This document shows, one piece after another, positions 5,635 through 57,083 of a stretch of DNA of 64,000 bases. Position 1 is the stretch's first letter. Every line of letters begins with the position of its first letter. Source of the DNA: Thermoanaerobaculaceae bacterium (lineage in GTDB: Bacteria > Acidobacteriota > Thermoanaerobaculia > Multivoradales > UBA5704). Where the stretch lies: the NCBI GenBank assembly GCA_963717295.1, contig OY970330.1:2532391-2596390 (forward strand), given 5' to 3'. Under the pieces are notes generated by a model. The model searched no databases. It saw nothing but the letters and a program-made list of their open reading frames with translations, and was not told the origin of the DNA. A program made the position numbers and the translations under genes.

Positions 5635-6501
5635 CTAGCGATCCTCGCCGCCCTTGATCGCGAAGTCGAGGGTGCGGGTGGGGAACGGCAGGGTGATGCC
5701 GTTGTCGTCGAACGCCTTCTTGATCTTCTCGATGGCCTCGCTCTGCGCCGCGAGAAAGTCAGACTGCTTGGAGGCGAAGGCGATCCAGAAGCGAGCCACT
5801 AGATCGATGGAGCTCTCGCCGAACTTTTCGAAAAACATCTCACAGGGGGTGTTCGGTTTGCGAGCGGAGACCTGCTCCAGGGTTTTCAAGGTGACCTGTC
5901 TCACCTTCTCCAGGTCATCGCCGTACGAGACGCCCAGCTTGAGATCGACTCTGCGCTTCCCCATGGCCGTGTAGTTGGTGATCGGATTCTCGAACACCTG
6001 CTTGTTGGGGATGAGCGCGAGCTGACCCTGCGGGGTGACGATCTCGGTCCAGCGCAGGTGGATCCTCTGAACCACGCCGAGGAAATCCTTGGTCTGGATC
6101 AAATGGCCGACGCGAAACGGATGCTCGATCGAGAGAAAGATGCCGGCCATGAAGTTGGCGGCGATGTCCTGGAAGGCGAAGCCGAGGGCGAGCCCCAGGA
6201 TGCCGGCGCCGGCGAGCAGCGAAGCGACCGTCTTCTGCAGCCCGACGATGCCGAGCGAGATGAACACCCCGGCCGCGAGAAGAAGCAGGAACACCGTCTG
6301 GGCGAGCAGCCGAGTTACCTGCTCGCTGTGGGAAACGCGGTGCAGGAGACGCAGCAGGAGGCTCCGTACCAGCTTGGCGATGAGCCAGAATCCCACCAGC
6401 ACGAACACCGCCACCACCAGGTTGGGCAGCAGCAGGATGAAGTCCCGCGACCACCCCAGCAACTTCCCCACGAGCAGGTTCCAGGTCTTTTCGATATCCA
6501 T
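5635..6501 (-). CDS. mechanosensitive ion channel, MscS family
   Basis: The true start is MDIEKT at 6501; the 663-aa track ORF is an upstream read-on into kdpD antisense frames. There are three TM helices and a conserved pore/beta domain (AGILGLALGFAFQDIAANFMAGIFL...PNKQVFENPITNY). Confidence 0.85.
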   Translation of the reverse strand: MDIEKTWNLLVGKLLGWSRDFILLLPNLVVAVFVLVGFWLIAKLVRSLLLRLLHRVSHSEQVTRLLAQTVFLLLLAAGVFISLGIVGLQKTVASLLAGAGILGLALGFAFQDIAANFMAGIFLSIEHPFRVGHLIQTKDFLGVVQRIHLRWTEIVTPQGQLALIPNKQVFENPITNYTAMGKRRVDLKLGVSYGDDLEKVRQVTLKTLEQVSARKPNTPCEMFFEKFGESSIDLVARFWIAFASKQSDFLAAQSEAIEKIKKAFDDNGITLPFPTRTLDFAIKGGEDR

Positions 6502-6536
6502 GGCCTGGAAGATTAGTGCAACTCGCGGGCCATCCC

Positions 6537-8471
6537 CTATTCGATCGCCAGCGCGATCTGGTTGGCGAAGGCTTCCAGGAGATGGAGCTGCTCGGGAGCG
6601 ACGAGGCGTTGCGGGTCGGCGGGGTGCACGCCCAGCACGCCGACGATTCCCTGCGAGGTGCGCAGGGGAATGTAGAGACCCTTGGCGGCGGGGAGGGTAT
6701 CGGTGGTCTTCCCTGCCATGCGCCCGTGATCGAAAACCCACTGCGAGACGGCCTGCTCGCGGATGTCGAAGAGGTAGGTGACCACCTCCGCCGCCCGCTC
6801 GGCGAGGCGGCCGGTCTCGTCCGGCAGCAACAGCAGCACCTGGGAGAGGAAGACGGAGTGGATGTGCTGGGCAGCGGCCTTGAGCACGGCGTCGAGGTCC
6901 GCAGCGGCCGCGAGGTCCCGGCTCATGGCGTAGAGGGCCGCCGTGCGCTCCTCTCGGGTCCGCGCCGCCTCGGCCTGCTGGCGCAGACGGACGGTGAGGG
7001 TGGAGACGACGATCGCCGTCGTGAGCATGACGGCAAAGGTCAGCAGGTACTCGGCGTCGGTGATAACAAAGGTGAGGTACGGCGGCACCAGAAAGAAATC
7101 GAAACCGGCGACGGAGAGCACCGAGGCCAGGATGGCGGGACCCCGGGTGGATCTGGAGGAGATTCCCACCACGCTCAGCAGCATGAGCATGGCGAGGTTT
7201 GTGGGCTGGAAATACGAGCGAACGGAGATGCACAGCCCAAGCGTCAGACCGGTGACCAGAAGGGCCGCCACGTAGCCCCGAACGTCCCACTCCGGGCGGC
7301 TCGGCTTCTCCGCCGCCGGCCAGCCGCCGCCCTCTTCGCCTGAAATCACATAGATGTCGATGCCGCCGCTGCCGCGCACCAGATCGTCGCGCACCGAGCC
7401 GAAGAGCACGTCCTTCCACCGTGAATGAAGCGGCTTGCCCACCACGATCTTCGAGACGTTGCGACGCCGGGCGTACTTCAAAATCTCCTCGGCCGGGCGC
7501 TCGCCGGAGAGGGTGACCGTCTCGGCACCCAGGCGTTCGGCGATCCGTAGCGTCTGCCAGACGCGGTCGCGCTCCGCTTGCGCGAGGCGCAGCTCGGCCG
7601 GCGTCTCGACATACACCACCACCCACTCGGCCCGCAGCCGCTCTGCGAGCCGCCGGCCGCCCCGCACGAGCTGGCCGGCCGCAGGCCCGGAGCTGATGGC
7701 TACCAGAAGGCGCTCGGCCACGGGCCAGGTGTCGCCGATGTTGTGCGCCTGGCGGTAGAGCTGCATCTGCGCGTCCACCCGCTCGGCCGTCTTGCGCAGG
7801 GCAAGCTCGCGCAGGGCAATGAGGTTTCCCGGACGGAAGAATCCCTCGATCGCCCGCGACGACTGCTCGGGGTTATAAACCTTTCCTTCCTGGAGGCGCT
7901 TGAGCAGCTCCTCGGGCGGCAGGTCCACCAGCTCGACCTGATCGGCCCGTTCGAGGATGGAGTCCGGCACCGTCTCGCGCACGGCGACGCCCGTGACCTT
8001 CCCCACCAGGTCGTTCAGGCTCTCCAGATGCTGGACGTTGACGGTGGTCCAGACGTCGATTCCCTCGGCCAGCAGCTCCTCGACGTCCTGCCAGCGCTTG
8101 GCATGGCGGGAGCCGGGAGCGTTGGTGTGGGCCAGCTCGTCGACCAGGACCACCGCCGGCCGGCGATCCCGAGCCCCATCGAGATCGAACTCCGCCAGCT
8201 CGACTCCCCGGTGCTCGTCGACGCGGCGAGGCAGGATTTCCAGACCTTCGAGCAGGGCCTCGGTTTCCTTGCGGCCATGGGTCTCGACGACGCCCACCAC
8301 CACGTCCACCCCGCGCCGGGCCAGCTCGCGGGCGCCTTCGAGCATGGCGTAGGTCTTCCCGACCCCGGCCGTGGCGCCAAAGAAGACCTTGAGCTTGCCC
8401 CGGCGCTCCCGCTCCGCCTCGGCGTTGGCGAGAACGAGAAGCTCGTCGGGATTGGGGCGGTCGGGCGTCAT
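6537..8471 (-). CDS. kdpD: KdpD-type sensor lacking the histidine-kinase transmitter (KdpD-N + Usp + 4TM + GAF only)
   Basis: KdpD N-domain ([19 protein letters not shown]), a Usp-like segment, a DUF4118-like TM block and a GAF-like end. The ORF stops at ...[10 protein letters not shown], where E. coli KdpD continues into the DHp H-box. Only 35 bp separate it from mscS. Confidence 0.85.
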
Positions 8472-9048: not shown

Positions 9049-11115
9049 TTACACCAGCCTCAAAGCCTGAAGGATGACGTCGATCAGCTTGATTCCCACG
9101 AAGGGGACGAGGACTCCGCCCAGGCCATAGATCAACAGGTTGTCGCGCAGCAGGCGCGAGGCTGAGTGGCGGCGGAACTTGACGCCTCTCAAGGCCAGCG
9201 GAATGAGCACTATGATGATCAGGGCGTTGAAGATGACGGCGGACAGAATGGCGCTCCGCGGGCTCGCGAGACGCATGAGGTTGAGCCGGTCGAGCACCGG
9301 ATAGGTGGTGGCGAAGGCGGCGGGAATGATGGCGAAATATTTGGCCACATCGTTGGCGATGGAAAACGTGGTCAATGTGCCGCGGGTGATGAGGAGCTGC
9401 TTGCCGATCTCCACCACCTCGATGAGCTTGGTGGGATTGGAGTCGAGGTCCACGAGATTCGCCGCCTCCTTCGCCGCCTGGGTGCCGGAGTTCATGGCCA
9501 CGGCCACGTCGGCCTGGGCCAGGGCGGGGGCGTCGTTGGTGCCGTCCCCCGTCATCGCGACCAGCCGGCCGCCGGCCTGATACTCGCGGATCAGCTTCAG
9601 CTTGGCCTCCGGGGTCGCCTGGGCCAGGAAGTCGTCCACGCCGGCCTCGGCGGAGATGGCGGCGGCGGTGAGCGGGTTGTCGCCGGTGATCATCACCGTC
9701 TTGATCCCCATCTGCCGCAGCTCGGCGAAGCGCTCACGAATGCCGCCCTTGACGATGTCCTTGAGGTGGATCACTCCCAGGACGCGGGAGCCCTCGGCCA
9801 CCACCAGGGGCGTGCCGCCCGAGGTGGCGATCGTCTCCACCTTGGTGCGCACGTCGGGAGGAAAGGAGCCGCCCTGGCCCACCACGTACGCTTCGACGGC
9901 GTCCGCAGCGCCCTTGCGGATCTGGCGGCCGGCGAGGTCGACGCCGCTCATGCGGGTCTGGGCCGTAAACGGCACGAAGCTGGCTCCCAGAGCGTGGACG
10001 TCGCGCTCGCGAAGGCGATACTGCTCCTTGGCCAGCACCACGATGCTGCGCCCCTCAGGAGTCTCGTCGGCCAGCGAGGAGAGCTGGGCGGCGTCGGCCA
10101 TCTCCTCCTCCCGGACCCCGTCCGCCGGGAGGAACTGGGTCGCCTGCCGGTTGCCGAGAGTGATGGTGCCCGTCTTGTCGAGCAGCAGGACGTCGATGTC
10201 CCCGGCCGCCTCCACGGCACGGCCCGAGGTGGCGATGACGTTGGCCTGGATCATGCGGTCCATGCCCGCGATGCCGATCGCCGAGAGCAGGCCGCCGATG
10301 GTTGTGGGAATCAGGCAGACGAGGAGCGCCGTGAGCACCGTCACCGTCACCGCGGTGCCCGCGCCGCACGCCTTGATGCTGTAGATCGAGAAAGGCAGCA
10401 GAGTCACCGTGGCCATCAGGAACACCAGCGTCAGGCCGGCGAGAAGAATGAAAAGGGCGATTTCGTTCGGCGTCTTCTGGCGCTTCGCGCCTTCGACCAG
10501 GGAGATCATGCGGTCGAGGAAGGTTTCGCCGGGATTCGCCGTGATGCGGATCACCAGCCAGTCGGAGAGCACCTGCGTGCCGCCCGTCACCGAGCTGCGG
10601 TCGCCGCCGCCCTCGCGGATCACCGGCGCGCTCTCGCCCGTCACCGCGGCCTCGTTGACCGAGGCGACGCCGTCAATCACCTCGCCGTCGCCGGGGATCA
10701 TAGAGCCGGCCTCGACGAGCACGACGTCCCCTTTGCGCAGATCGGTGGAAGAAACCTGAATAGACTTGGCGTCACGCCGCGGCTCTTCCAGCCGCTTGGC
10801 GAGAGTGGTTTTGCGGGTGTTGCGCAGGGCGGCGGCCTGGGCCTTGCCGCGCCCTTCGGCCATGGCTTCCGCGAAGTTGGCGAACAGCACCGTGAACCAG
10901 AGCCACACGCTGACACCGAGGATGAACCCGGCGGGAGCCTCACCCTTGCCGGCGAGCGCCTGGATAAAGAGACCCGTAGTCAGAAAGCTGCCGACGTACA
11001 CCACGAACATCACGGGGTTGCGCAGCATCAACCGGGGGTCGAGCTTACGAAAGGAGTCCTTGATCGCCGGACGGACGATCTTGGGATCGAACAGAGACGT
11101 CTTGCGGCGGGACAT
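9049..11115 (-). CDS. kdpB: K+-transporting P-type ATPase subunit B
   Basis: 688 aa with the P-type motifs [15 protein letters not shown] and [14 protein letters not shown]. Confidence 0.95.
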
Positions 11116-31508: not shown

Positions 31509-33095
31509 ATGAACGATCAGGACACCCAGGAAAAGCAGGAGCTCGGCCAGGAGACCCCGGACAGCGTGGCAATCTCCGACGACACCCAGGACACCCCAAG
31601 CCCGCAGGAGACCCAGGTTGCAGTTGCGGAGGCTCCCCCGGCAGACGCCCCCCAGGCGGCGGCTGAGGGGGACGAGGCGCCCCCGGCGGAGGCCGCACCG
31701 GCGGCCGAGGCCTCGTCTCCGGAGGCCGAAAAGCCTCAGGAGACGCCCGCGGCACCGCAGGAGGCGGCCGCGAAGCCTCAGGAAGCAGCGACTGACGAGA
31801 AAAAAGGCTTCGGCGAGATCCTGGCCGAGTTCGAGCACGATGCACCGAAAAAGAAGCGCGACGAGCAGGGGGCCGGCAGCAAGGTGAGCGGCAAGATCCT
31901 GTCGATCGGCGAGGAATGGGTCTTCGTCGACGTCGGCGGCAAGTCGGAAGGCCGGATCGCCGCGGCGGAGCTGAAGGACGCCGAGGGCAACGTCACGGTC
32001 AAGGAGGGCGACACCCTCGAGGCCACCATCACCGGCACCGATCCCGAGTCGGGCGCCCTGCTGCTCAAGCGCAAGGCGGGCGGCAAGGGCAAGCGCACCG
32101 AGGTCTCGGCCGAGATCAAGCAGGCCTTCGAGAGCGGCCTGCCGGTCGACGGCATGGTCACCGGCCTCAACAAGGGCGGCGCCGAGGTACAGGTCTACGG
32201 CATGCGGGCGTTCTGCCCCCTGTCGCAGCTCGACCTGCGCTACGTCGAGGACCCGCAGCGCTTCGTGGGCCAGAAGCTGCAGTTCAAGATTTCCCGTCTC
32301 GAAGAGGGGAACCGTGGCGGCCGCGGCCCGAACATCGTGCTCTCCCGGCGTGCCCTGCTGGAGGACGAGCAGCAGACGAAGGCTTCCGAGACCCGCGAGA
32401 AGCTCCAGGTCGGCGCCACCCTCACCGGCAAGATCACCTCGCTGACCACCTACGGCGCGTTCGTCGACCTCGGCGGCATCGAGGGCATGCTCCACGTCAG
32501 CGAGATCGGCCACAGCCGCACGGCCCATCCGCAGGACGTCTTCACTGTCGGCCAGGAGGTCGAAGTCCAGGTCATCAAGATCGAGAAGGGGAAGGACGAG
32601 AAGCGGCCCGAGCGCATCTCCCTCTCCCGCCGCGCCCTGGAGAAGGACCCGTGGCGCGACGCCGTCTCCCGCTTCCCCGAGGGCACGGAGACCACCGGCA
32701 AGGTGGCGCGCACCGAGACCTTCGGCGCCTTCGTCGAGCTGGCGCCCGGCCTCGAAGGGTTGGTCCACATCAGCGAGATCGGCGGCGGCCGGCGGCTGAA
32801 CCACGCCCGCGAGGCGGTACAGCCCGGCCAGGAGGTGCAGGTGCGGGTGCTGGGAGTGGATACGGCACGGCGCCGGATCTCGCTCTCCATGTCCGCGGTC
32901 GGCGGTGGCGGCGGCGACCGCAGCGAACGGAGCGATCGCGGCGGCGACCGTGGTGGCGACCGCGCGCCTCGCGGCGACCGCGACAACCGTCGCGACGATC
33001 GCCGGGAAGAGTACGCTTCGGCCAACGCCTCGTCGGCGGCCGGCTCGGGCTTCGGCTCGATGGCGGACTTCTTCTCGCGCAGCAAGAAGAAGTAG
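31509..33095 (+). CDS. S1 RNA-binding domain protein (ribosomal protein S1-like, four S1 domains)
   Basis: Acidic/Pro-rich N-terminus, four S1 OB folds (e.g. GKITSLTTYGAFVDLGGIEGMLHVSEI, GKVARTETFGAFVELAPGLEGLVHISEI), and an RG/RD-rich tail. Confidence 0.75.
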   Translation: MNDQDTQEKQELGQETPDSVAISDDTQDTPSPQETQVAVAEAPPADAPQAAAEGDEAPPAEAAPAAEASSPEAEKPQETPAAPQEAAAKPQEAATDEKKGFGEILAEFEHDAPKKKRDEQGAGSKVSGKILSIGEEWVFVDVGGKSEGRIAAAELKDAEGNVTVKEGDTLEATITGTDPESGALLLKRKAGGKGKRTEVSAEIKQAFESGLPVDGMVTGLNKGGAEVQVYGMRAFCPLSQLDLRYVEDPQRFVGQKLQFKISRLEEGNRGGRGPNIVLSRRALLEDEQQTKASETREKLQVGATLTGKITSLTTYGAFVDLGGIEGMLHVSEIGHSRTAHPQDVFTVGQEVEVQVIKIEKGKDEKRPERISLSRRALEKDPWRDAVSRFPEGTETTGKVARTETFGAFVELAPGLEGLVHISEIGGGRRLNHAREAVQPGQEVQVRVLGVDTARRRISLSMSAVGGGGGDRSERSDRGGDRGGDRAPRGDRDNRRDDRREEYASANASSAAGSGFGSMADFFSRSKKK

Positions 33096-33191
33096 GGAAC
33101 ACCAAGGACTCCAGGGACAGCAGGGACTTCAAGGACCGCAGGGTCGTAGCTTCTAGTCCTTGGTGTCCCTGGGGTCCCTTTTCGTCCCTGG
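33095..33191. repeat. 9-bp-periodic A(A/G)GGACNNN hairpin element, second copy
   Basis: AAGGACTCCAGGGACAGCAGGGACTTCAAGGACCGCAGGG ... AGTCCTTGGTGTCCCTGGGGTCCC. It overlaps the stop of the S1 gene and encodes the ...RDPRDTKD tail of the convergent gene. Confidence 0.75.
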
Positions 33192-33599: not shown

Positions 33600-35609
<2,010 letters not shown>

Positions 35610-35627
35610 TCAGGCTCTCTTCATCGC

Positions 35628-35712
35628 TTCCCTACGCTGGCATTACCCAGGTCAGGTGATGAGGGTCGTCCCCGCAACGGGACTCTCAGCCTTGGCGGCC
35701 CCCCTAGCTGGC
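35628..35712 (-). promoter_or_regulatory. TPP (THI-box) riboswitch, thiC leader
   Basis: Minus strand: GGGGGGCCGCCAAGGCUGAGAGUCCCGUUGCGGGGACGACCCUCAUCACCUGACCUGGGUAAUGCCAGCGUAGGGAA. It carries the CUGAGA and ACCUGA..CUGG.UAAUGCCAGCG signatures, about 110 nt upstream of the thiC ATG. Confidence 0.9.
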
Positions 35713-35768
35713 AGGGATGATCGTACACGGTTTGGGAGGGCGAGGTGTAGGAGGGCGGCAATCGAGGT

Positions 35769-36587
35769 TCAACCTCGTAGCGCGGCGACGATCTCGGTAA
35801 GCGACGAGGCCGTCACCGACTGACGGAGGACTGACCGGAGGACCGCCAGGTCGCCGCAGCCAGCAAGAGCCGTCCTCAGATCGCCGGACATCGCGAATCC
35901 GCGGGTCGTCAGAACCTCGGCGACAGCCTCCCGGAGACCTTGGGCCTCTCCTTTGGCCTCTCCTTTGGCCTCACCTAAGACCTCGCCTTCGGCGCGGACC
36001 TCTTCCAGGCTGGCGTAGCCCTCGCGCTGAAGGAGATTGCGGAAGATGACCTGGTCCGCGGTCTCGCGATCGTAGAGCGCCTTCACCGGCACCGGATTGG
36101 CCAGGATTCCAGGCGCTTCGAGCTGCTCATCCGGGTTTACGACGCGCATCCCCTGGCCCGGCTGATGCACCTCCACCCGCCGCGGGCCGGTCAGCCGCAC
36201 CACCCAGACGTAGCGGGTGCCGGCGGCGAATAGCTCCTGGATCTTGATCCGCAGATCCGCTTCGTCCTGGCCCGTGTCGGCGTACTCGACTGCCAGTGGA
36301 GGCGCCCCCTCAGCCCATCCCGGTAGATCGGGGATCTCGCCCACGGAGAGATCGGGGGCCCGGAGCACGTCCGGGGAGGGGGAGTAGCCGGCGTCGACCC
36401 CGACGTCCTGGACCGCCGGATCGCTCGCGAGCACTCCGCCTCCCACATTCACCGCCTTCGCTCCCCGTCTTCCCGTGGGCAGGCAGTGAATGGGGTGGCC
36501 GTTGGACAGCTCGTACGGGTCACCGGACCGGAGCTGACCGGCGGTAAAGGGTCCTTGAGACCTGAGTTGCGGCGAGCTCTTGTTCAT
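35769..36587 (-). CDS. Uma2-family (DUF820, PD-(D/E)XK-like) endonuclease fused to a DUF4351-like helical tail
   Basis: Uma2-like core (PDLSVGEI...PLAVEYADTGQD...AAGTRYVWVVRL). The C-terminus has EGEVLGEAKGEAKGEAQG followed by a helical segment, as in Rpn/DUF4351 tails. Confidence 0.65.
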   Translation of the reverse strand: MNKSSPQLRSQGPFTAGQLRSGDPYELSNGHPIHCLPTGRRGAKAVNVGGGVLASDPAVQDVGVDAGYSPSPDVLRAPDLSVGEIPDLPGWAEGAPPLAVEYADTGQDEADLRIKIQELFAAGTRYVWVVRLTGPRRVEVHQPGQGMRVVNPDEQLEAPGILANPVPVKALYDRETADQVIFRNLLQREGYASLEEVRAEGEVLGEAKGEAKGEAQGLREAVAEVLTTRGFAMSGDLRTALAGCGDLAVLRSVLRQSVTASSLTEIVAALRG

Positions 36588-36642
36588 CGGGGAAAATCAT
36601 AACACTTCATGGGAGGAAGAGGAGACGGGGAGGATCGGAACC

Positions 36643-36726
36643 TACTACGCTGGCATTCCCCAGGCCGGGTGATGAAGGTCGTCCCTCGCGACGGGACTCT
36701 CAGCCTTGACGGCCCCCCTAGCTGGC
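36643..36726 (-). promoter_or_regulatory. second, diverged TPP-riboswitch-like copy upstream of the Uma2 gene
   Basis: Minus strand: ...GGGGGGCCGUCAAGGCUGAGAGUCCCGUCGCGAGGGACGACCUUCAUCACCCGGCCUGGGGAAUGCCAGCGUAGUAG. It is collinear with copy A over ~130 nt (about 85% identity by eye), but the ACCUGA and UAAUGCC positions are altered. Confidence 0.65.
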
Positions 36727-36803
36727 AGGATGATCCTACACGGTTGGGAGGGCTAGGTGTAGGGGCGGATCGGAATATACTTCCTGAGATAGGAAGGAGC
36801 TCG

Positions 36804-38162
36804 ATGAAATCGCGTCAACGTGACCAGCAGCCTGAGGACGAGGGAAGCCCAGCTTCCCCGGTGTACCTGCTCGACCTCTCGGTTCGCAACGTCCGCTGTT
36901 TCGGACCCGAAGAGCAGACTCTACGTCTCTCGGACTCCCAGGGTCGTCCGGCACCGTGGACGGTGATCCTAGGCGACAATGGCGTCGGCAAGACCACCCT
37001 CTTGCAGTGCCTCGTCGCGCTGGAACCGCGGCGCCACTTCACCAGACCCAGCGGCCTTGTCAGCGACTTCGGAGAACGGCCACAGGTTGAGCTGCCAACG
37101 AACGGCGGCGACGGCTGGAAGATCTACCGCGGCCTTCCGGAAGAGACTTCAATCAAGGGACACTTGGCCTTGGGTCACGGGCTTCGGCCCTCAGGGGAAT
37201 CCATTCAGACTACGGAAGTCATCGTACCCACAAGCACCCAAATGTGCTGGTCGACGCCTGATACGCGACGCTTCGATCTCCGGGTCTGCGGCTACGGAGC
37301 CACCCGCCGGATGGGTTCGGCAGTACTCAGCCGCGGCCCGGAGGATCCTGCGGCAAGCCTCTTTCTAGACTACGTAACCTTGGTCGATGCGGAGGAGTGG
37401 CTGCTGGTCGAGGACTACGCGCGGAGCCGAGGCGGAGGCGCTGAGTCGGAGCGGCGCCTGGAGAAAATCAAGAAGGTTCTGCTCGACCTTCTGCCCGACA
37501 CCGAGAATCTCCGGATCGTGGTCAAGCCCCGGGCCGATACGCAGAGAGTCAAACCTTCCATTGAGATGAAGACTCCCTATGGCTGGGTGGCCCTCTCCAA
37601 CCTGAGCCTCGGCTACCGAACAATGATCGCCTGGACGGTCGATCTTGCGAGCCGGCTCTTTGCGCTCTACCCCCGAAGCCCGAATCCCCTGGCTGAGCCC
37701 GCAGTGGTTCTGGTGGACGAAGTGGACCTCCACCTCCATCCAAAGTGGCAGCGTGAGCTACGAAGCCATCTGACCGAACGGTTCCCCAACGTGCAGTTCG
37801 TGGTCACTGCCCACAGCCCGCTCGTTGCACAAGCGTCGGAAAACGAAAACATCGTCGTGCTGCGACGCCAGGGAGATCACGTGGTCATCGACAACGACGT
37901 CGAGACGGTGCACGGCTGGCGAGTCGATCAAGTGCTGACCTCGGATTTGTTCGGGTTGAAGACCGCCCGTCCTCCCGAGTACGATGATCTAATCGCCGAG
38001 CGCAATGCCCTCCTCTCGAAGCGGATCCTCAGTGCCCCAGATCGCGCGGCCCTCAAACGACTTGAATCCCAGGTCGTCGAGCTCCCTGCAGGCGAGACTC
38101 CGGAGGATCTGGAAGCCATGCAGATCATCCGCGAGGCCGCCGCCAAGCTCCGGAACTCCTGA
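36804..38162 (+). CDS. ptuA: AAA/ABC-type ATPase, Septu PtuA-like
   Basis: ATG 36804 follows AGGAAGGAG. Walker A GDNGVGKTTLLQ, Walker B/D-loop VVLVDEVDLHLHP, and VVTAHSPLV. It sits 5 bp upstream of an HNH gene. Confidence 0.7.
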   Translation: MKSRQRDQQPEDEGSPASPVYLLDLSVRNVRCFGPEEQTLRLSDSQGRPAPWTVILGDNGVGKTTLLQCLVALEPRRHFTRPSGLVSDFGERPQVELPTNGGDGWKIYRGLPEETSIKGHLALGHGLRPSGESIQTTEVIVPTSTQMCWSTPDTRRFDLRVCGYGATRRMGSAVLSRGPEDPAASLFLDYVTLVDAEEWLLVEDYARSRGGGAESERRLEKIKKVLLDLLPDTENLRIVVKPRADTQRVKPSIEMKTPYGWVALSNLSLGYRTMIAWTVDLASRLFALYPRSPNPLAEPAVVLVDEVDLHLHPKWQRELRSHLTERFPNVQFVVTAHSPLVAQASENENIVVLRRQGDHVVIDNDVETVHGWRVDQVLTSDLFGLKTARPPEYDDLIAERNALLSKRILSAPDRAALKRLESQVVELPAGETPEDLEAMQIIREAAAKLRNS

Positions 38163-38167
38163 GCCGC

Positions 38168-38917
38168 ATGATCCGTATTCTCAAGTCTGCGACCCCGCCC
38201 GAGATCCTGGTGAACGAGGGCAGGATGGCGACCAACGGCCACTGCAACGGCTATGAAGCGGATCCGTCCGCGTACCAGGATGGCACCCGGACGTTCTCTT
38301 TTGACTCCGGGATTTACGGTCACGCCTCGGTCAAAGACATGCTGATTGCGGCGCAGCATGGCAAGTGCTGCTTCTGCGAGGCGAAGATCACTCACATCAG
38401 CTATGGTGACGTGGAGCATTTCCGGCCCAAGGCGGGCTACCGTCAGGATCCGGACGACGATCTCACCCGCCCGGGTTACTACTGGCTGGCCTACGACTGG
38501 AGCAATCTCTATCTCTCCTGCCAGTTGTGCAACCAGCGCTACAAGAAGAATTTCTTCCCTCTACAAAACCCCAAGCGGCGCTGCCAAGATCACATGGGGG
38601 ATCTCACACTGGAAGAACCGCTGTTCCTCGATCCAGGATTGAACCCGGAAGACCATATCGAGTTCGCAGCCGAGCAGCCGAAAGCCAGGGACAGCAGCCT
38701 CAAAGGCGTTGAAACCATCAAGGCTCTCGGATTGCTTCGGGAGCCCCTACGGGAGAGGAGGTATGACAAGTACGTCCAACTTTCCACTCTCAGGGACGTG
38801 GCGCTTCTGTATCCCGACGAGCCCCTGGGACAGCGCGCCCGTAGCGTCCTCGACAGAGCGCTAGGCGACGACGCCGAGTACGCCTCCATGGCGCGGTGCC
38901 TGATGAGAAAGCCCTGA
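38168..38917 (+). CDS. ptuB: HNH endonuclease, Septu PtuB-like (TIGR02646-type)
   Basis: HGKCCFCEAKI...GDVEHFRPKA...WSNLYLSCQLCNQRYKKN matches the Cys-rich HNH signature of the retron/Septu-associated HNH family. Confidence 0.7.
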   Translation: MIRILKSATPPEILVNEGRMATNGHCNGYEADPSAYQDGTRTFSFDSGIYGHASVKDMLIAAQHGKCCFCEAKITHISYGDVEHFRPKAGYRQDPDDDLTRPGYYWLAYDWSNLYLSCQLCNQRYKKNFFPLQNPKRRCQDHMGDLTLEEPLFLDPGLNPEDHIEFAAEQPKARDSSLKGVETIKALGLLREPLRERRYDKYVQLSTLRDVALLYPDEPLGQRARSVLDRALGDDAEYASMARCLMRKP

Positions 38918-38986
38918 ATGTCCTGAGAGTCTCCAGGGAAGGCGGATCGGAGTCAACGCAAAGGGGAGAGTTGTCGCCGCTGCAAT

Positions 38987-39103
38987 CCCGCCCGGGCATA
39001 AATGCCGGGGCTAGTAGCTGCGCCCCCTGAAGGGGACTTAAGCCGGATTAAGCCGGATTCATCCGGCGCCCTTGAAATAGCCCCGGCATTTATGCCCGGG
39101 CGG
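38987..39103. repeat. palindromic intergenic element (26-bp perfect terminal inverted repeats), family A
   Basis: CCGCCCGGGCATAAATGCCGGGGCTA at 38988..39013 is the exact reverse complement of 39078..39103. The left ~65 nt recur at 56946..57010. Confidence 0.85.
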
Positions 39104-56945: not shown

Positions 56946-57010
56946 CCCCGCCCGGGCATAAATGCCAGGGCTATGAGCTGCGCCCCCTGAAGGGGACTTA
57001 GAAGCCGGAT
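56946..57010. repeat. truncated copy of family-A palindromic element
   Basis: CCCCGCCCGGGCATAAATGCCAGGGCTATGAGCTGCGCCCCCTGAAGGGGACTTAGAAGCCGGATT matches 38987..39052 at about 90% by eye. The right inverted arm is absent. It abuts the low-GC islet. Confidence 0.8.
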
Positions 57011-57083
57011 TCCGGGTGTAGCCGCACCCGCCAATACGTCATCCTTACATCACCTCCTACTGAGCCGCCCAACGCTCCTCACT

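Follow-up and report, generated by a model that had tools for sequence, protein, structure and literature searches.

The TPP riboswitch (THI element, RF00059) is known to control thiC by transcription termination, and a complete member combines a P1–P5 junction, with conserved J4/5 and L5 nucleotides, with an expression platform and a thiamine-related gene downstream. CUGAGA and the GCG of GCCAGCG are the nucleotides that contact TPP directly (PMC7824784). Septu, a defense system made up of the PtuA ATPase and the PtuB HNH nuclease, is known from defense-island hot spots. The Uma2 family (PF05685) comprises putative PD-(D/E)XK endonucleases; a literature search returned incidental mentions of Uma2 and nothing on its function, and nothing on riboswitch relics of the kind described below. 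In true tandem riboswitches, both units are complete and each has its own expression platform, within one 5' UTR. The Bacillus anthracis tenA leader, described as two complete TPP riboswitches in series, is the example closest to the arrangement considered here.

The locus lies in a 64,000-nucleotide stretch (the window; contig OY970330.1) of a Thermoanaerobaculaceae genome (Thermoanaerobaculia, Acidobacteriota), in which two TPP-type sequences, a Uma2 gene, and a Septu operon crowd the DNA upstream of thiC. The reading favored here, at a probability of roughly 0.8 and judged from sequence, is that the upstream copy (copy B) is a pseudo-riboswitch left over from a local duplication, that a single working riboswitch (copy A) stands upstream of thiC, and that the Uma2 gene has its own promoter. 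The features are as follows.

33600–35516, minus: thiC (HMP-P synthase; Pfam ThiC_Rad_SAM, 623 bits, plus the ThiC-associated domain)
35566–35602, minus: intrinsic terminator and expression platform of riboswitch A (sequence reading, centroid fold, and conservation)
35612–35715, minus: TPP riboswitch aptamer, copy A (RF00059 above gathering score; core the same as in seven orthologous leaders, which score 62.8–68.5 bits)
35632–35758, minus: repeat unit, copy A, spanning the thiC promoter region and the aptamer as far as GCGUAG (matched to copy B by blastn and alignment)
35756–36611, minus: Uma2 cassette with the open reading frame (ORF) at 35769–36587 (272 aa, 819 nt; Pfam Uma2 and homology to paralogues)
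36627–36646, minus: duplication junction, AGTAGGTTCCGATCCTCCCC, repeating the Septu end and target sequence AGTATATTCCGATCCGCCCC of 36762–36781 (local alignment)
36645–36768, minus: repeat unit, copy B, a duplicated thiC promoter with a 3'-truncated, decayed TPP aptamer (RF00059 below gathering score; no terminator behind)
36706–36734, plus: candidate ptuA promoter, sigma-70-like TTGACG-17-GATGAT, antisense within copy B (consensus scan)
36775–38940, plus: Septu island with ptuA at 36804–38162 and ptuB at 38168–38917 (PADLOC)

The thiC Riboswitch

A first-pass annotation of the sequence had placed a TPP aptamer before thiC on the minus strand, and the Rfam scan bears this out. Copy A (35612–35715) matches RF00059 over its full length (model positions 1–105) at 64.7 bits, against a gathering score of 54.3. 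A -10-like TACGAT occupies 35720–35725 in its promoter region, the conserved CGTGTACGATCA. On the 3' side the order is terminator, SD sequence, and thiC. The terminator is laid out as GGCCGCACC, an 11-nt loop, GGTGCGGCC, and the U-tract TTTCTCTT; the hairpin appears in the centroid fold, its equivalent in the relative L089 is flagged as a terminator, and it is also kept in L001, L087, L090, L096, L098, and L099. Translation of thiC most likely starts at the ATG at 35516, behind the SD sequence GGAAGGAG, and the ATGATCGAGCC start is kept in all relatives.

To judge by these features, copy A is a bona fide TPP riboswitch and the ancestral one for thiC. From what is known of the family, TPP bound to the aptamer would favor formation of the downstream terminator hairpin, and transcription would halt before thiC. 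Single-sequence minimum-free-energy folding gave z-scores near 0 or positive and did not recover the native TPP fold even for copy A, so the covariance model and comparative data were used instead.

A Decayed Second Copy

The same annotation had reported a collinear second copy about 1 kb upstream on the same strand, roughly 85% identical by eye. The direct repeat is there, at 36645–36768, and its measured identity to 35632–35758 is higher than the estimate: 89.8% over 128 columns by blastn, or 90.7% over the 118 core positions shared in an alignment. The repeat takes in some 40 nt of promoter region ahead of the aptamer and breaks off at GCGUAG, partway through the 3' strand of P4. Copy B covers the thiC promoter, with a -10-like TAGGAT at 36733–36738, and the 5' four-fifths of the aptamer, and is a true paralogue of the copy A leader. 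An assembly artefact as the origin of the two copies was ruled out, as they differ at about 10% of positions.

When the covariance model was applied to both copies, as the annotation had proposed, copy A passed and copy B did not. Copy B is absent from the scan at the gathering threshold and appears in a relaxed E-value search of 1.4 kb (36626–36729, minus strand; 33.0 bits against 54.3, E = 2.8e-4). As had been described, it keeps CUGAGA and GCCAGCG and is altered at ACCUGA (ACCCGG) and UAAUGCC (GAAUGCC, a UAAU-to-GAAU change); ACCCU has also become ACCUU, GCC has become GUC, and there are changes in the loops. Five of the substitutions specific to copy B fall at columns that are invariant in the eight other leaders, that is, copy A and the seven orthologues. 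The P3 and P5 stems are intact, and the covariance alignment contains non-standard pairs in P1, P2, P3, and P4. The rest of P4 is missing, leaving two of its four pairs, which are not adjacent, and the 3' strand of P1 has been replaced by unrelated sequence. A complete P1–P5 junction with the conserved J4/5 and L5 nucleotides is not found in copy B. Given the retained TPP-contact nucleotides and the P3 and P5 stems, it may still bind TPP weakly.

Nothing resembling an expression platform follows. Sequence reading, scanning, and folding found no terminator and no sequestering hairpin in the 57 nt before the Uma2 gene, and the RNA downstream of copy B folds worse than shuffled sequences (z = +2.6). 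The gene it precedes belongs to the Uma2 family and not to thiamine metabolism.

The Uma2 Cassette

The nuclease gene begins at the ATG at 36587, the 57 nt past copy B that the annotation had given, and matches Pfam Uma2 (PF05685) at 34.4 bits against a gathering score of 27. The motifs RAPDL(S/A)VG and LAVEYAD, putative acidic catalytic motifs, are invariant across 24 homologues, including D79 (in PDL) and E101 (in AVEY). The DUF4351 domain also assigned to the protein did not hold up: Uma2 is the sole Pfam match at E ≤ 10 for both the whole protein and its C-terminal 105 aa. There was no match in NCBIfam or PADLOC, and no solved structure in the PDB was detectable by sequence. The family is multi-copy. 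The metagenome-assembled genome (MAG) GCA_036275055.1 has two members, and the 8.78-Mb contig of the window has a second one, P0111; look-ups by exact sequence matched no record for either the window protein or P0111. Third-position identity of the window gene is 79.9% to the Uma2 gene of L001, barely more than the 78.2% to a paralogue in the same MAG as the L001 gene, so orthology with the L001 gene is only a possibility.

Homology among the paralogues is confined to the ORF and about 25 nt upstream. In the window, the 5' flank is CATGAAGTGTTATGATTTTCCCCG, with TGnTATGAT at 36596–36604, 8 nt before the ATG. The 3' tail, ACCTCGATTGCCG, is common to the window and the paralogue L086; this post-stop sequence is part of the cassette, and a 35-nt target duplication once considered to flank Uma2 was dropped for that reason. 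All 10 paralogues examined, down to 70% amino acid identity, have a -10-like TAT(G/T)(A/C)T with an upstream TG, 7–8 nt before the ATG, and none of the 10 has an SD sequence before it. Because of this shared pattern, the window gene most likely has its own -10-type promoter and a leaderless mRNA. The paralogues examined sit in unrelated contexts; L001 alone is also near thiC, with its Uma2 gene upstream of a single TPP element, and the nine other paralogues are all without a preceding TPP element. Unregulated transcripts from the duplicated copy B promoter may in addition read through into Uma2. The promoters of Uma2 and copy B, like the leaderless start, are proposed from sequence motifs.

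Relatives and the Order of Events

The informative relatives came from a metagenome DNA-pattern scan. A scan of genome contigs with ThiC returned mostly distant phyla and one useful Thermoanaerobaculia locus, L003. Aligning the thiC leaders of relatives, another check that had been suggested, recovers the state before insertion: L087 and L099 (thiC 96% identical in amino acids) have a fully syntenic empty site, reading pheA, an IR element, TPP, and thiC, and the empty site of the Septu insertion in L087 reads ...TTGAGTCAGATCCCGCCCCCCTACACC.... L089 (93%) has the Septu operon only, with a single TPP element and a Septu junction, GGAAGTATAT/TCCGATC, identical to that of the window. The duplication and the Uma2 gene occur together only in the window among these relatives, each of which has one TPP element, scoring 62.8–68.9 bits.

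The defense system that had been reported next door is Septu according to PADLOC, with PtuA (PDLC00304, 508 bits) and PtuB (PDLC00339, 300 bits) encoded on the same strand 5 nt apart. On either side of the island stands an 11-nt direct repeat, TCCGATCCGCC (36764–36774 and 38941–38951); the island's GC content is about 0.60, versus 0.67 for the window. The Septu insertion probably came first and without aptamer duplication, since L089 combines the operon with just one TPP element. The duplication would have followed it, because the end of Septu and the target sequence recur at the junction behind copy B. The junction alignment scores 29, against 13.4 ± 2.2 for shuffles (0 of 2,000 reach 29), for a similarity that is short (20–37 nt) and C/T-rich, with a score of 28 occurring once elsewhere in the window.

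The changes since then are one-sided. The copy A aptamer is identical to those of L001, L089, and L090, and copy A is 96–97% identical to its orthologues in L087 and L089, versus 90.7% to copy B. In the polarized alignment all aptamer changes after the duplication fall on copy B, and of the roughly 9% of positions that differ between the whole copies, nearly all changed on the copy B side. Set against thiC third codon positions that are 78% identical in the window and L089, this difference fits a duplication after the two lineages split, followed by neutral decay. In principle, L089 could derive from a window-like state through recombination between the two repeats.

The order of events that these sequences suggest is as follows. 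The Septu operon would have inserted beside the thiC promoter first. A tandem duplication of about 135 nt would then have copied 7 nt from the island's end together with the 11-nt repeat at the target, the promoter of thiC, and the aptamer as far as GCGU; the Uma2 cassette would occupy the second duplicated unit, just upstream of the copy A promoter. As an alternative order, a whole 1-kb unit was duplicated and its first Uma2 copy was lost. The breakpoint of the duplication would have cost copy B the 3' strands of P4 and P1, relaxed selection would then have let substitutions build up in it, and transcripts running past Uma2 would still meet riboswitch A, preserving TPP control of thiC. The annotation had offered two aptamers in series, created by insertion of the island, with copy B perhaps decaying. 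A duplication linked to insertion and the decay both stand; Septu as the duplicating agent does not, given the single TPP element of L089, and neither does serial action, as thiC effectively stands behind one working aptamer and not two. The region upstream of thiC is a hot spot of insertion and rearrangement.

Other Uses and Origins of Copy B

The relic may have found a use as DNA. With just 29 nt of the island ahead of the ptuA ATG, the promoter of that gene has to lie in flanking DNA, and a consensus scan of 1.5 kb found a sole candidate promoter (0.1 expected): TTGACG-17-GATGAT, antisense in copy B. Its -35 hexamer was created by a C-to-T change specific to copy B, and the L089 equivalent, TTGGCG, falls below the scan threshold. 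Copy B could thus have been kept as promoter DNA, in antisense for the Septu operon and in sense as a constitutive extra promoter into Uma2, and the duplication could have ended competition between the thiC promoter and a ptuA promoter overlapping it back to back. All of this is compatible with copy B being a relic. Of course, a single consensus match is involved, chance could account for one of about nine substitutions in a sequence that is decaying, and the Septu operon of L089 evidently copes with an unduplicated leader; re-use as a promoter is possible and, on balance, rather unlikely.

The origin of the duplication could also lie with Uma2. The two repeats closely flank the cassette, the right one starting a few nucleotides from the conserved 3' tail, and this multi-copy family occupies many unrelated intergenic sites, as would suit either a long duplication of the target site or the Campbell-type integration of a circular DNA with Uma2 and part of the thiC leader. 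Against this, at six other paralogue loci no direct repeat of more than 15 nt flanks the gene out to 500 nt, and the left junction holds Septu-end and not cassette sequence, a better fit to a head-to-tail tandem junction. Such a by-product of cassette insertion is improbable. The fuller proposal, in which the Uma2 genes of Thermoanaerobaculia spread to intergenic sites near promoters as leaderless single-gene cassettes driven by their own promoters, one such insertion (or nuclease activity) made the duplication of about 135 nt, and copy B was re-used as the Septu promoter through TTGACG, is a long shot as well. If true, it would mean a decaying riboswitch recycled into promoter DNA for defense genes.

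Far less credible is the co-option first suggested for the locus, in which copy B, perhaps weakened or re-tuned, still responds to TPP and gates Uma2, tying thiamine status to a nuclease beside a defense system. Copy B is a true aptamer homologue with CUGAGA, GCCAGCG, P3, and P5, and it sits with its duplicated promoter on the Uma2 strand, with no terminator before the gene. The annotation had itself named what would speak against gating, and the sequence has it: the copy fails the model and has no 3' P1 strand, and Uma2 has its own promoter motif. The broken P4, the missing expression platform with poorly folding RNA downstream, and the changes at invariant positions, a pattern of relaxed selection, weigh the same way, as do the nine other paralogues, none of them behind a TPP element. 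A tandem riboswitch, with both aptamers giving thiC a sharper or two-step response, is less likely still: both lie on the thiC strand with no minus-strand terminator found between them, so read-through transcripts could carry both. Yet the incomplete copy B lacks an expression platform and is separated from copy A by an 819-nt ORF that has a promoter of its own; copy A, in turn, has a promoter copy immediately before it, and a single aptamer suffices in all seven orthologous leaders.

With copy B read as a duplication relic, the locus amounts to ordinary genome wear and not a new regulatory circuit, and its novelty is low. It carries a caution, that a sub-threshold riboswitch-like match before an unrelated gene can be a relic and not a re-wired regulator. 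Its stepwise history can be read from metagenomic relatives, from the empty site to Septu and then to Septu with the duplication and Uma2, and thiC kept its riboswitch control through two insertions into the promoter region. The sequences also hint that Uma2-family genes may move as minimal cassettes that bring a promoter along and have a leaderless start.

Comparison with Known Systems

The Septu operon resembles known Septu in its adjacent genes, low GC content, and presence or absence among close relatives. It differs in that the island holds two genes only, without a mobility gene, between 11-nt direct repeats, and it is a neighbor of the riboswitch duplication and not part of it. The window ORF agrees with the Uma2 family in passing the gathering score, in its invariant motifs, and in being multi-copy within genomes; the Thermoanaerobaculia subfamily differs from its PF05685 relatives in a C-terminal (A/S)EGE-repeat and helical tail without a Pfam match. 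Next to the tandem riboswitch of the tenA leader, the window likewise has two TPP-type aptamer sequences on one strand upstream of a thiamine gene. Two complete units in one leader are not found in it, however: part of the upstream unit is missing, the two units are kept apart by an 819-nt ORF that has a promoter motif of its own, and the relatives are single-unit. Copy B shares ancestry alone with the TPP riboswitch, being 3'-truncated, sub-threshold, and without an expression platform before a gene unrelated to thiamine. Copy A, with the full P1–P5 consensus including CUGAGA, ACCUGA, and UAAUGCCAGCGUAGGGAA, a score above the cut-off, a terminator behind it, and thiC downstream, is in nothing unusual among TPP riboswitches.

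The two TPP copies

Along the minus strand from 37100 to 35400 come the start of ptuA, copy B, an ORF of 272 codons, and copy A; thiC then follows after a hairpin with its U-tract and an SD sequence.

Genes around the two TPP copies
Start (ATG) at 36804, plus strand: ATPase gene (ptuA), from reading of the sequence
36587-35769, minus strand: ORF of 272 codons between the copies (Pfam Uma2, 34.4 against a gathering score of 27)
Downstream of copy A, minus strand: thiC (Pfam, 623 bits)
Divergent from the thiC strand: Septu PtuA and PtuB (PADLOC, 508 bits and 300 bits)
39182, beyond Septu: pheA (Pfam)

Next to the copies lie an ordinary Septu pair and a gene of the Uma2 family. The Pfam score bears out the Uma2-type gene that the first-pass annotation had placed between the copies; its DUF4351 label for the same gene finds no Pfam match even at E <= 10. 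By its protein homologues the window belongs to Thermoanaerobaculia (Acidobacteriota). The GC content of the Septu segment is about 0.60, lower than the 0.67 of the window. The Uma2 subfamily carries a repeat tract, (A/S)EGE(A/V)xGR, at residues ~200-225 of the protein encoded at 35769-36587, which varies in length by up to ~24 residues among homologues and is followed by a conserved helical C-terminal tail; neither tract nor tail is matched by Pfam. A literature search turned up nothing on what Uma2 does or on riboswitch relics of a comparable sort.

At Rfam gathering thresholds, the whole 64-kb window yields a single family, RF00059, at 35612-35715 (minus), scoring 64.7 bits where the cut-off is 54.3. 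This is copy A, an ordinary member of the family. Copy B comes up only in a relaxed search of 35500-36900, at 36626-36729, where it scores 33.0 bits (E = 2.8e-4) and non-standard pairs are flagged in P1, P2, P3, and P4. The covariance-model check proposed earlier comes out in favor of copy A and against copy B. The two form a direct repeat (A, 35632-35758; B, 36645-36768; spacing 1013 nt) with an identity of 89.8% by blastn, or 90.7% across 118 shared positions. The repeat starts ~40 nt upstream of the aptamer and ends at GCGUAG, within the 3' strand of P4. The copy coordinates in the first-pass annotation and its 57-nt gap between copy B and the nuclease gene were correct, as was its remark that CUGAGA and GCCAGCG are retained in copy B and ACCUGA and UAAUGCC changed.

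Probable decay of copy B

Four lines of sequence evidence argue that copy B is not a riboswitch. It fails the RF00059 gathering score. It lacks the 3' strand of P1, because its homology to A stops before P4 ends, and keeps two of the four P4 pairs. A terminator (GGCCGCACC...GGTGCGGCC plus TTTCTCTT) follows copy A and every orthologue; copy B is followed by 57 nt that lack any terminator-like structure and fold worse than shuffles (z = +2.6). Finally, in an alignment of both copies and seven orthologous leaders, all aptamer changes since the duplication fall on copy B: GCC to GUC, ACCCU to ACCUU, ACCUGA to ACCCGG (two changes), and UAAU to GAAU, in columns where the other eight sequences do not vary. 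Two relatives, L087 and L089, have leaders 96-97% identical to copy A, whereas copies A and B share only 90.7% identity; such a pattern is the mark of relaxed selection on copy B, with copy A under purifying selection. Since copy B retains the nucleotides listed as direct TPP contacts (CUGAGA and the GCG of GCCAGCG; PMC7824784), it may still have some residual binding. Copy B belongs to RF00059 by descent, yet it fails the defining tests and is not filed as a riboswitch.

History of the site

A metagenome scan with the leader pattern of this lineage gave 13 loci, which were compared by tblastn and alignment. Each relative has exactly one TPP element (62.8-68.9 bits).

States of the site (thiC amino acid identity to the window)
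L087 and L099 (96%): empty site; BNR, pheA (opposite strand), thiC promoter, one TPP element
L089 (93%): Septu only; ptuB-ptuA (opposite strand), CAT...GGGAAGTATAT/TCCGATCTGCCCCCTACACC, one TPP element
Window: Septu, duplication, and Uma2

The two empty-site loci are in full synteny with the window; between pheA and the thiC promoter, L087 has the inverted-repeat (IR) element and L099 a GGAC-rich hairpin repeat. Relative to the empty site, whose promoter region in L087 reads TTGAGTCAGATCCCGCCCCCCTACACC, the window's Septu island (36775-38940) has an 11-nt duplication, TCCGATCCGCC, on both sides (36764-36774 and 38941-38951; single-copy in L087). The Septu junction upstream of copy B is that of L089. 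The two-gene island has no mobility gene despite its flanking direct repeat, and its insertion point adjoins an ancestral TTGACT upstream of the thiC promoter.

The 20 nt past the copy B breakpoint, AGTAGGTTCCGATCCTCCCC, repeat the Septu end and the target AGTATATTCCGATCCGCCCC at the start of unit B, with an alignment score of 29 compared to 13.4 +/- 2.2 for shuffles (0 of 2000 reach 29). GCGU/AGUA would then be a head-to-tail junction, left when a unit of ~135 nt was duplicated in tandem with Septu already present. The Uma2 cassette lies within the second unit, just upstream of CCTACACC. An alternative is that a 1-kb unit already containing Uma2 was duplicated and its first Uma2 copy then lost; the simplest account would have two steps, the ~135-nt tandem duplication and then insertion of the Uma2 cassette. 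A thiC third-codon-position identity of 78% between the window and L089, taken with ~9% lineage-specific change on copy B, is consistent with a duplication that postdates the split from L089 and with roughly neutral decay since then.

The window, L087, and L099 have an intact pheA, the chorismate mutase/prephenate dehydratase gene; L001 retains only a 78-nt 3' remnant of it (6822-6899) and L096 only a 32-codon 5' remnant (~2228-2320). The thiC-BNR interval is therefore called a recurrent deletion and rearrangement site. A structured element of ~116 nt lies between pheA and the thiC promoter (38988-39103), with a perfect outer stem of 27 bp around two small hairpins and no match to an Rfam family. 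It is also found in L001 (6965-7069) and L087 (~9237-9360), the latter with a pair of compensatory double changes, one in the outer stem (A-U to G-C) and one in an inner hairpin (C-G to U-A). A half copy, facing the other way, sits at 56951-57020 of the window. Scattered between genes are GGAC-rich hairpin repeats, long and imperfect (window 33094-33189; L001 5897-5977), which cause spurious microRNA-family matches in Rfam. They also occur upstream of the thiC promoter in L099, L098, L096, and L090, and in several relatives they take the place of the stretch preceding the thiC -10 element.

Promoters and present-day regulation

The first-pass annotation had offered a riboswitch co-opted to gate the nuclease gene as one reading. 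Nine other loci encode Uma2 proteins 70-88% identical to the window's; their settings are unrelated and include positions behind pyrF, a TIR-CHAT gene, and an MFS transporter, and one beside ECF sigma factors. Nucleotide homology covers only the ORF and ~25 nt upstream, and ends at or just past the stop codon; the 3' tail ACCTCGATTGCCG is shared with the paralogue L086. In all 10 loci, the window included, a TAT(G/T)(A/C)T hexamer closely preceded by a TG stands 7-8 nt ahead of the ATG, and none has an SD sequence; the motif is TGnTA(T/G)GAT in the seven closest. This layout suggests an extended -10 promoter giving a leaderless mRNA. Of the other nine, only L001 has a TPP element nearby: its one thiC riboswitch, located downstream of Uma2. 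At the sequence level, then, a predicted promoter of the nuclease gene's own lies between copy B and the ORF, which counts against the gating reading.

Among known homologues, the one most similar to the window's Uma2 is that of L001 (88% amino acid identity; region 6001-6899). It also adjoins thiC, at another position: between the BNR gene and the pheA remnant, upstream of the IR element. Six relatives closer by thiC than L001 have no Uma2 in this region. The two positions may reflect independent insertion, local movement, or repeated loss.

By homology and the known mechanism of the family, thiC would be controlled through TPP-dependent termination by riboswitch A, from the promoter copy directly upstream. 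In the minimum free energy fold, which is no better than shuffles, the aptamer 5' segment GGGGGGCCGCC pairs with the 3' arm of the terminator, a plausible candidate antiterminator. Copy B's promoter probably still works, given that L087, L099, and L001 have an identical -10-like TAGGAT; it would send unregulated transcripts through Uma2 and onward to riboswitch A.

The island contributes just 29 nt ahead of the ptuA ATG, and the ptuA promoter must therefore lie in flanking DNA. TTGACG-17-GATGAT (36706-36734, plus strand), a sigma-70-like consensus match antisense within copy B and directed toward ptuA, is the only promoter-like site in a 1.5-kb scan. A copy-B-specific C-to-T change created its -35 hexamer, TTGACG, and the ptuA-facing equivalent in L089 is below the scan threshold. 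The relic may thus have been re-used as a Septu promoter, as judged from one consensus match. The -10 of this site overlaps copy B's own TAGGAT, back-to-back.

Comparison with known systems

The locus is a worked example and a warning that sub-threshold riboswitch matches should not be taken for new regulation. What has been documented well here is a relic of evolution at a hot spot for insertions. It does not amount to a system of a new kind, and the arrangement of A and B at thiC does not qualify as a tandem riboswitch.
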